A DNA stretch of 34,924 nucleotides from a virus (taxonomy: Duplodnaviria > Heunggongvirae > Uroviricota > Caudoviricetes). The stretch is from IMG/VR virus record IMGVR_UViG_2896589216_000002; one strand, 5' to 3'. Of the stretch, positions 24,203 through 24,514 are shown one piece after another. The notes beneath the pieces were generated by a model. The model was not told the origin of the DNA and searched no databases. It was given only the letters and a program-made list of their open reading frames with translations. Each line of letters starts with the position of its first letter. Positions within the stretch are counted from its first letter, which is position 1. The translations under genes were made by a program, and so were the position numbers.

Positions 24203-24277
24203 TGGAGCGGGCAGCGGGAATCGAACCCGCATCATCAGCTTGGAAGGCTGAGGTAATAGCCATTATACGATGCCCGC
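24203..24277 (-). tRNA. tRNA-Gly (anticodon UCC), glyT-like
   Basis: Cloverleaf GCGGGCA...TGCCCGC, anticodon loop CTTCCAA, encoded CCA. Confidence 0.85.
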
Positions 24278-24280
24278 ATA

Positions 24281-24357
24281 TGGTGCCGACTACCGGAATC
24301 GAACTGGTGACCTACTGATTACAAGTCAGTTGCTCTGCCTGCTGAGCTAAGTCGGCG
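24281..24357 (-). tRNA. tRNA-Thr (anticodon UGU)
   Basis: Acceptor GCCGACT/AGTCGGC, anticodon loop CTTGTAA, T-loop TTCGATT, CCA; one T-stem mismatch. Confidence 0.8.
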
Positions 24358-24359
24358 CT

Positions 24360-24436
24360 GGCCCACCACCGAGGACTCGAACCTCGCACCGTCAACTTAG
24401 AAGGTTGATGCTCTATCCGGATGAGCTAGTGGTGGT
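24360..24436 (-). tRNA. tRNA-Arg (anticodon UCU), phage argN/argO-like
   Basis: Anticodon loop CTTCTAA, T-loop TTCGAGT, CCA; unusual C1:G72 acceptor pair. Confidence 0.8.
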
Positions 24437-24437
24437 T

Positions 24438-24514
24438 GGTGGCCCTTGCTGGACTTGAACCAGCGACCTGGCGATTATGAGTCGCTCGCTCTGACCAACT
24501 GAGCTAAAGGGCCG
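24438..24514 (-). tRNA. tRNA with CAU anticodon, ileX/ileZ-like (probable tRNA-Ile2; Met not excluded)
   Basis: GGCCCTT acceptor, anticodon loop CTCATAA, T-arm GCTGGTTCAAGTCCAGC resembling E. coli ileX. Confidence 0.7.

Follow-up and report, generated by a model that had tools for sequence, protein, structure and literature searches.

The viral contig IMGVR_UViG_2896589216_000002 (Caudoviricetes), which was analysed over its whole length of 34,924 nucleotides and is referred to here as the window, carries a compact cluster of tRNA genes. ARAGORN, applied to the whole 34.9-kb window, found exactly four tRNA genes, all on the minus strand and arranged head to tail in the order Ile2(CAU), Arg(UCU), Thr(UGU) and Gly(UCC). 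An earlier note, made from the sequence alone, had placed a cluster of four tRNAs at 24203-24514 and had left the strand unstated. ARAGORN and Rfam confirm this cluster, and the coordinates were right within 1 nt. In the order of transcription, the genes are:

24437..24513, minus strand: tRNA-Ile2 (CAU), 77 nt, ileZ-type; ARAGORN; Rfam 70.5 bits
24359..24435, minus strand: tRNA-Arg (UCU), 77 nt, argN-type body, C1:G72; ARAGORN; Rfam 56.4 bits
24281..24356, minus strand: tRNA-Thr (UGU), 76 nt, thrU-derived; ARAGORN; Rfam 69.8 bits
24203..24277, minus strand: tRNA-Gly (UCC), 75 nt, identical to host glyT; ARAGORN; Rfam 64.9 bits

The four tRNA genes and their host counterparts

The Rfam scores refer to the tRNA model RF00005, and all four genes exceed its gathering score of 29 bits, with E-values from 1e-13 to 1e-9, far beyond chance. 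All four tRNAs have acceptor stems of 7 base pairs and anticodon loops of 7 nt with U33 and a purine at position 37 (CUCAUAA in Ile2, CUUCUAA in Arg, CUUGUAA in Thr and CUUCCAA in Gly). The CCA end is encoded in every gene, as the earlier note had said, with the 3' ends ACCA, GCCA, ACCA and TCCA. The genes are separated by A, GC and TAT, so that the spacers measure 1, 2 and 3 nt instead of the 2-3 nt given before. No open reading frame (ORF) of at least 60 amino acids overlaps the cluster, and a relaxed Rfam search of the flanks (23600-24700) returned only sub-threshold, implausible matches. Minimum-energy folds of the single sequences reproduced the full cloverleaf for none of the four tRNAs, Arg and Gly coming nearest. 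Such misfolds are usual for unmodified tRNA sequences, and the covariance-model scores were therefore preferred to the folds. Over its entire 311 nt, the cluster is identical (311/311) to one in E. coli FDAARGOS_944 (locus L001), which RefSeq annotates as tRNA-Ile, tRNA-Arg, tRNA-Thr and tRNA-Gly, with no pseudogene flags; we let this annotation stand for the tRNAscan-SE check proposed in the earlier note. The 311-nt noncoding stretch consists of four ordinary tRNA genes. The cluster has already been annotated automatically in public genomes, and it is a compositional variant of known phage cargo.

The identity of each tRNA was assessed by pairwise comparison with tRNA genes of E. coli K-12 and of phages, the ileZ, argN and argO genes of Shiga toxin (Stx) phages being taken from the annotated record AP012530. 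The Ile2 gene matches ileZ at 74/77 positions (96%) and K-12 ileX at 69/77 (90%), but the elongator gene metT at only 54/78. Its acceptor stem (GGCCCUU/AAGGGCC) contains C4:G69 and C5:G68, as in ileX, and these two pairs are determinants for TilS. The CAU tRNA had been read as Ile2 in the earlier note, and this assignment stands, in agreement with the RefSeq name; the tRNA is presumed to be a lysidine-modified reader of AUA codons.

The Arg gene is closest to argN (64/77, 83%), followed by K-12 argU (58/79, 73%) and, at a distance, argO (46/77). Its acceptor stem (CCACCAC/GTGGTGG) begins with C1:G72, and the discriminator base is G73. The D-loop, AUCCGGAUA, aligns with AGUUGGAUA of argU, which places an A at position 20. 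The identity set of the E. coli ArgRS comprises A20, C35, U36 or G36, and A73 or G73. With A20, C35, U36 and G73, and with the anticodon UCU, the tRNA has every element of this set and is predicted to accept arginine and to read AGA/AGG.

The other two genes are much closer to those of the host. The Thr gene agrees with K-12 thrU at 74/76 positions (97%), and both changes, U16C and U20C, lie in the D-loop; among the IMG/VR matches listed, the C16/C20 allele occurs only in the haplotype with Arg(UCU). The Gly gene, which had been described as glyT-like, is identical to K-12 glyT over 75/75 positions. By their anticodons, Thr(UGU) should read ACA and its relatives, and Gly(UCC) should read GGA/GGG. 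The comparison with ileX, argU, thrU and glyT, which had been proposed as a check, thus pairs each of the four tRNAs with a host gene of the same anticodon. Two differences from the host set are apparent. K-12 argU has G1:C72 where the Arg tRNA of the window has C1:G72, and the K-12 genes are dispersed (thrU and glyT in the thrU-tyrU-glyT-thrT operon), whereas the window unites all four specificities in one cassette.

Expression signals and the probable supply of rare-codon decoders

Two signals upstream of the cluster and one downstream of it bear on its expression:

24523..24551, minus strand: putative sigma-70 promoter, TTGCAG (24551-24546), 17-nt spacer, TATTAT (24528-24523); consensus scan
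24606..24636, minus strand: intrinsic-terminator hairpin, AAAGAGCCCGC-TTTAT-GCGGGTTTTTTT; minimum-energy fold
24151..24196, minus strand: hairpin directly 3' of tRNA-Gly, GUCUUUCAGUC...GACUGAAAGAC; fold

The -10 element ends 9 nt before position 1 of tRNA-Ile2, and the stretch in between is GC-rich (TCTGCCTCC in the window, CCTGCGCCC elsewhere), which we take to resemble the discriminator of stable-RNA promoters. The consensus scan found 2 promoter-like sites where 1.4 were expected, a result that is not significant alone, and a site at 24289-24262 was dismissed because it lies inside the Thr and Gly genes. However, TTGCA(A/G/T)-N17-TATTAT is present at the same distance in 112 of the 124 related clusters listed, that of Stx-phage ileZ included. 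These 124 clusters represent 36 distinct upstream sequences, in which spacers and flanks diverge while the motif is kept. The site at 24551-24523 was accepted as a putative promoter solely because of this conservation across related clusters.

The hairpin further upstream has 13 base pairs, and the region has a z-score of -4.5; it was missed by the consensus scan and revealed by the fold. It is found at the same place in FDAARGOS_944 and in locus L002, and L004, L008 and L009 have an analogous hairpin. In intact relatives, the terminator follows the Q-position or ORF6N gene and precedes the tRNA promoter, and from this placement the hairpin looks like a tR'-type terminator. The cluster would then be a self-promoted operon downstream of the late terminator. 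The hairpin 3' of tRNA-Gly has an outer stem of 11 bp and is kept in 5/5 aligned cluster variants; it is not followed by a U-tract and could serve in processing or as a weak terminator.

Codon usage was compared between the non-pseudogene coding sequences of the FDAARGOS_944 prophage (6,169 codons) and 42 K-12 genes (14,748 codons). The most enriched codons in this sibling prophage are AGA (7.3x), AGG (6.9x), CGG (3.9x) and AUA (3.9x), followed by CGA (3.3x), ACA (2.5x) and GGA (2.4x). Five of these top seven codons (AGA, AGG, AUA, ACA and GGA) are cognates of the four tRNAs of the cluster, and the remaining two, CGG and CGA, are the codons of argN(UCG), the tRNA found at the same cluster position in Stx phages. 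By chance, the four A-ending cognates would all rank among the top 7 of 61 codons with a probability of 6.7e-5. The codon-usage analysis suggested in the earlier note fits the expected relation to rare codons. The same enrichment is seen in 855 unique ORFs beside the 120 IMG/VR clusters listed and in the window's own non-IS (insertion sequence) ORFs, where AUA accounts for about 8-10, AGA for 6-8, and ACA and GGA each for 13-16 codons per thousand.

We consider it probable that the cluster, a variant of the ileZ-argN-argO cassette from a lambda-like phage, forms a self-contained polycistronic tRNA operon and increases the supply of four minor decoders. That the cassette is transcribed, that its products are processed, charged and, in the case of Ile2, modified with lysidine, and that it brings any benefit are points that we infer. 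The sigma-70 promoter TTGCAG-17-TATTAT would fire a few nt upstream of tRNA-Ile2 and give a single transcript that carries Ile2(CAU), Arg(UCU), Thr(UGU) and Gly(UCC) at distances of 1-3 nt. RNase P would cut each 5' end, and since CCA is encoded, short trimming should suffice at the 3' ends. In the CAU tRNA, C34 would be turned into lysidine by TilS, which would enable this tRNA to read AUA. The products would add to the decoders of AUA, AGA/AGG, ACA and GGA. In the intact phage, the cassette would follow the Q-position gene and the tR'-like terminator and precede the holin gene. Given its own promoter, it could continue to provide the host with an additional copy of four low-abundance tRNAs.

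The codons AUA, AGA/AGG, ACA and GGA are over-used by AT-rich phage genes and other horizontally acquired genes. K-12 has one or two genes for each of the decoders (ileX/ileY, argU, thrU and glyT), argU and glyT being single, so that one extra copy would be a substantial change in gene dosage. In the case of Thr(UGU), thrU is the only K-12 gene with this anticodon (PMC12445682). The same role has been proposed for the tRNA genes (Asn GUU, Thr UGU) of SfI, Sf6, ST64T and phage 21, which lie in the same slot downstream of Q in phages with an ACA bias that matches their tRNA-Thr(UGU) (PMC3636060). In vivo, the tRNA-Thr(UGU) of phage 21 is functional (PMC12445682). Compared by description, these phages differ from the window in their tRNA sets and tRNA bodies.

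In the window, the set is composed of a phage-specific Ile2, a phage-specific Arg body and two genes that match host thrU and glyT almost or completely. The cassette illustrates how temperate phages assemble a tRNA set from parts under one compact, putative promoter, and its specificities correspond to codons over-used in the phage genes. A parallel is provided by T4: among its eight tRNAs are Ile(CAU), Arg(UCU), Thr(UGU) and Gly(UCC), the same four specificities, packed and co-transcribed, which read A-ending codons that are rare in E. coli. The T4 tRNA sequences are not known to be related to those of the window, so that any resemblance would be one of convergence, and T4 differs in being a virulent phage with four further tRNAs.

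Several points weigh against the rare-codon supply reading. Horizontally acquired DNA is generally enriched in rare codons, which makes the match a correlation. The enrichment ratios are inflated because the K-12 baseline contains several highly expressed genes; against whole-genome averages, they would be roughly 2-4x. Among the prophage genes, the early and accessory ones are more strongly enriched in AUA and AGA than the late ones that directly follow the cluster. A version of the reading in which the tRNAs help late-protein synthesis is not specifically supported, and constitutive expression from the cluster's own promoter fits this distribution better than a purely late role. Some sister copies in Shigella and enteroinvasive E. 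coli (EIEC) are decaying (L002, and Thr in L155), which means that selection does not act on all of the copies. Finally, the phage that would benefit no longer exists in the window.

The Arg body, its anticodons and a possible link to tRNA-targeting defence

The closest known system is the ileZ-argN-argO cassette of Stx phages (e.g. Stx2a_F349, AP012530; 933W-type). It occupies the slot after Q and a terminator and before the late or lysis genes, where intact relatives of the window's cluster lie as well. As in the window, its genes are tightly packed with encoded CCA, and TTGCA(A/G)-N17-TATTAT precedes ileZ by 9 nt. The relation to this trio that the earlier note had drawn holds for ileZ, for the body of the second tRNA, which shares C1:G72, and for the promoter-like motif. 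It does not extend to the anticodon of the second tRNA, which is UCG in argN and UCU in the window, nor to the third gene, since argO(UCU) has an unrelated body. The window has the thrU-like and glyT-like genes in place of argO, with no toxin genes after them. By sequence, its cassette is best described as a compositional variant and not as the canonical trio.

A second group of relatives, with the order Ile-Lys(UUU)-Thr-Gly, is found in many lambda-like prophages of E. coli (APEC O1; phages vB_EcoM-606R7 and PhiR47_1) and shares 93-95% identity with the window over 430 nt. These clusters have four genes, the promoter-like motif, Thr and Gly genes, the downstream hairpin and the holin gene in common with the window. 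Their second tRNA differs: it has the anticodon UUU and reads AAA, it has C33 instead of U33, and it carries U73 and an A51.C63 mismatch. Their Thr is identical to thrU and lacks the C16/C20 of the window.

A pattern made from the D- and anticodon arms of the Arg tRNA was used to scan IMG/VR and matched at least 120 contigs. At least 27 distinct 77-nt sequences of the Arg body came from IMG/VR, and L004 supplied a 28th. Across these 28 sequences, 98.1% of the cells of the standard cloverleaf are paired, compared with 29-54% when the partners are slid, and 5 base pairs have changes on both sides, as expected of compensatory changes. C1:G72 is present in 27/28 of the sequences. The pair had been singled out as unusual; it is present and is indeed unusual for an Arg tRNA, but it is a conserved hallmark of this phage tRNA family and no defect of the window's copy.

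In GTDB (one genome per species), the same pattern matched only three Escherichia/Shigella genomes and otherwise ordinary chromosomal tRNA-Arg(UCU) genes from further bacterial groups, mostly Proteobacteria, nearly all of them with G1:C72. These matches suggest that the phage Arg body was derived from an Arg(UCU) tRNA. The UCU version in the window would then, we infer, represent the ancestral state.

Three arrangements dominate the IMG/VR matches: at least 50 contigs have Ile-Lys(UUU)-Thr-Gly, at least 26 have Ile-Arg(UCU)-Thr-Gly as in the window, and at least 24 have Ile-Arg(UCG)-Arg(UCU). Other contigs have partial or rarer combinations. The window's own haplotype occurs in at least 22 IMG/VR prophage contigs; it was not found among the isolated phages of INPHARED. 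In related prophages, the same Arg body bears four anticodons, namely UCU, UCG (Stx argN), UUU and UGU. The relatives in which this was seen are:

L003, 3261-3337, minus strand: Arg body with another anticodon
L004, 3260-3336, minus strand: Arg body with another anticodon
L008, 2501-2577, minus strand: Arg body with another anticodon
L010-L129: IMG/VR loci of the family

The UUU (Lys) version accounts for 56 of the 120 matches listed and always has C33 instead of U33 (loop CCUUUAA), although U33 is near-universal in tRNAs. The UGU (Thr) version, in E. coli CE0026a, again has C33 (loop CCUGUAA). In the IMG/VR locus L109, the cluster reads Ile-Arg(UCU)-Lys(UUU)-Gly, and the Lys gene is a thrU body with the anticodon change G35U. 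By its sequence, this gene appears to be a second, independent route to a phage tRNA-Lys(UUU), the UUU anticodon having arisen on two bodies.

A further apparent switch was rejected. RefSeq annotates a tRNA-Val(UAC) where Gly would be expected in E. coli FDAARGOS_943 (L002, 3107-3177, minus strand) and about 8 similar genomes. This gene is a decayed glyT-like gene, with a 1-nt deletion in the 3' strand of the acceptor and CAA in place of CCA, and the neighbouring Thr gene has a broken anticodon stem. The Val calls are probably an annotation artefact and do not denote a genuine tRNA-Val.

The anticodon at the second position of the cluster is not reflected in the codon usage of the neighbouring phage genes. 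No matching shift was seen between clusters with UCU, UCG or UUU at this position: in all three groups, AAA accounts for 38.6-40.2, AGA for 7.6-8.2 and CGA for 6.7-7.5 codons per thousand. Moreover, AAA is not rare in E. coli. Since codon usage is equal in the three groups and AAA is a common codon, codon supply fails to explain the anticodon switches.

The switches may have to do with defence. The C1:G72 body could be a phage tRNA chassis that is repeatedly re-pointed to provide nuclease-resistant substitutes, which would make the cassette an anti-defence module as much as a codon-supply module. Starting from UCU, the anticodon may have become UCG or, together with C33, UUU or UGU. The tRNAs replaced in this way may be Lys(UUU), which is hit by PARIS and PrrC, and Thr(UGU), which is hit by P2 Old and PARIS, and the window's Thr(UGU) with U16C and U20C may be a partly AriB-resistant allele. 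The lack of a tie between anticodon and codon usage, the abundance of AAA, the occurrence of UUU on two bodies and the U16C change are compatible with this proposal, to which we assign a small likelihood.

For the cluster of the window itself, the corresponding explanation is that the tRNAs are counter-defence cargo, which replaces host tRNAs cut by PARIS AriB, P2 Old, HepS or PrrC-like nucleases, and do not compensate for codon usage. The strongest case can be made for Thr(UGU). This tRNA is the main target of P2 Old during lambda exclusion, and cells are rescued from P2 Old by phage tRNA-Thr(UGU) genes, that of the lambda-like phage 21 among them (PMC12445682). It is also a prime target of PARIS AriB (PMC12409363) and a secondary target of Gifsy-1 HepS (PMC13043305). 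The window's Thr differs from thrU at U16C and U20C only, and the sole hint that concerns this cluster directly is that U16C impairs AriB cleavage in tRNA-Lys(UUU) (PMC12409363). The sister clusters add an Arg body with UUU or UGU, with an anticodon arm that is unlike those of host tRNAs and is untied to codon usage.

On the other hand, the Gly tRNA is 100% identical to that of the host, and the anticodon arm of Thr is that of thrU, with the CNG motif (P2 Old) and the UAAUC|A site (AriB) retained. Neither Thr nor Gly has any anticodon-arm substitution at nuclease sites relative to thrU and glyT. Cells that over-expressed the host thrU were protected from P2 Old little or not at all, and Arg is only among the secondary targets of that nuclease (PMC12445682). 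We found no reported nuclease that targets Ile2(CAU) or Gly(UCC), whereas the codon enrichment explains all four specificities at once. We therefore regard a counter-defence role of the window's cluster as improbable.

The leads of wider potential are only two, the Arg body with switching anticodons and the U16C allele of Thr, and the former concerns the family and not the window. With one body, four anticodons and unshifted codon usage, the Arg family would be a case of natural anticodon switching, possibly driven by tRNA-targeting defence.

A holin-plus-tRNA island between insertion sequences

The immediate surroundings of the cluster consist of one phage gene and two copies of an IS3-family element:

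23695..23910, minus strand: class II holin gene, 71 aa; Pfam Phage_holin_2_1, 1.1e-35
24647..25896, minus strand: complete IS3-family element (IS911-like/ISEc52-like), orfA 25858-25520, orfB 25493-24594; Pfam HTH_Tnp_1 and rve
22966..23696, plus strand: truncated inverted copy of the same IS3-family element; self-BLAST; Pfam rve
23686-23696 and 24637-24647: inverted repeats of about 10 nt at the island borders; self-BLAST comparison

The holin gene lies 292 nt downstream of the cluster, in the same position as the holin of L001-L004, and is the only phage protein gene still attached to it. In FDAARGOS_944, the cluster sits between a DUF1133-family gene (in the Q-gene position) plus an ORF6N gene on one side and the holin gene on the other, in a lambda-like prophage that is integrated next to ttcA and is largely complete, though partly frameshifted. 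Intact relatives follow the same plan: the cluster is always just upstream of the holin gene, with a DUF1133-family or annotated antiterminator Q gene on the other side (annotated Q genes in L003 and L004) and sometimes one extra gene between the Q-position gene and the cluster. Stx phages carry ileZ-argN-argO and stx in the same slot.

In the window, homology to these prophages is limited to about 23,690 to 24,647, an island of holin and tRNA genes. The complete IS3-family element, whose matches in relatives RefSeq names IS3-like IS911 or ISEc52, is inserted about 11 nt upstream of the terminator hairpin, so that the cluster is cut off from the Q/pR' region; the window is homologous to L001 and L002 up to 24647. 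The truncated copy adjoins the stop codon of the holin gene, and the remaining lysis and late genes are gone. The two copies are 99.3% identical (22966-23696 against 25365-24637). The prophage has thus been destroyed, and an IS-bracketed relic is left, from which the Q region and all that lay beyond the holin gene are missing. The prophage origin claimed earlier is supported by the holin gene and by the identical cluster in a lambda-like prophage, with the reservation that the window holds only this relic. About 10 nt that flank the right IS copy (ACATGGACATT, minus strand) recur inverted at the inner end of the left copy. These inverted repeats suggest that the island borders arose by IS-mediated inversion or duplication and not by two independent insertions.

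The cluster may thus be regarded as a possibly still functional remnant between insertion sequences. As it appears to be self-promoted downstream of the late terminator, it could stay functional after the IS elements had removed Q and pR'. The opposite view is that the four genes are neutral leftovers of a dead prophage, too young to have decayed and not usefully expressed. The bracketing of the island by IS elements, an IS load of more than 40% of the window and the loss of the flanking phage regions would fit this view, and so would the decay of sister copies (the Gly-derived 'Val' gene with its acceptor deletion, broken Thr stems and a Thr shortened to 74 nt). However, the window's copy is identical to that of the largely complete FDAARGOS_944 prophage, promoter-like motif and terminator have been kept, and a sigma-70 promoter makes the expression of tRNA genes independent of phage factors. 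Moreover, the cluster is present in multiple copies in Shigella/EIEC genomes. A functionless relic is, in our view, quite unlikely.

The multiplicity could also mean that Shigella and EIEC keep and multiply the cassette in order to translate the AT-rich genes of the invasion plasmid, which are rich in rare codons. The exact Arg tRNA of the window was found in 10 of 5,426 complete E. coli genomes, with 2-5 copies each, and several of these ten strains appear to be EIEC or Shigella-like. In S. flexneri SFBU1023, there are three Ile-Arg-Thr-Gly clusters, of which two have exactly the Arg tRNA of the window, and one Ile-Lys-Thr-Gly cluster. The absence of the haplotype from the isolated phages of INPHARED and the survival of the cassette in the window, where the phage is gone, point in the same direction. 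Yet multiple copies can simply reflect several related prophage remnants in IS-rich genomes, and some copies are decaying, so we consider domestication by the host very improbable.

The cluster marks the DNA around it as a lambda-like prophage relic in an IS-rich genome that resembles Shigella or EIEC; for the window, the result matters little. Judged by the IS load and by the genomes that share the Arg tRNA and the clusters, the source is probably a genome of the Shigella or EIEC type. Further repeats and prophage remnants are:

1-2350, 17914-20359 and 26355-28801: three near-identical IS66-family copies
22966-23696, 24647-25896 and 32984-34211: three IS3-family copies or fragments
4462-5229, 15839-16606 and 34212-34924: three copies of another repeat
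30677-30764, minus strand: C4 antisense RNA; Rfam, 78.6 bits
30790-30866, minus strand: isrK-type RNA; Rfam, 63.8 bits
20342-22956, minus strand: neck and tail genes (neck terminator protein, DUF4054), adjoining the left IS copy

The IS and repeat copies together account for the load of more than 40% mentioned above, a level typical of Shigella/EIEC genomes. None of the 5,426 complete E. coli genomes contains the entire window. Other pieces of a related prophage are found elsewhere in the window in rearranged order, among them a Rha/Ash regulator, a repressor-like HTH gene and ydaT. The neck and tail genes have 99.6% matches that run into a DUF3383 gene in the same EIEC-like genomes, where they sit at a different place. 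They probably belong to another prophage, which would make the window a mosaic of remnants. The C4 and isrK-type RNAs overlap the 5' end of a Rha/Ash-family ORF (30901-30077), an arrangement that looks like a P1/P7-type antisense-controlled antirepressor module in a prophage remnant.

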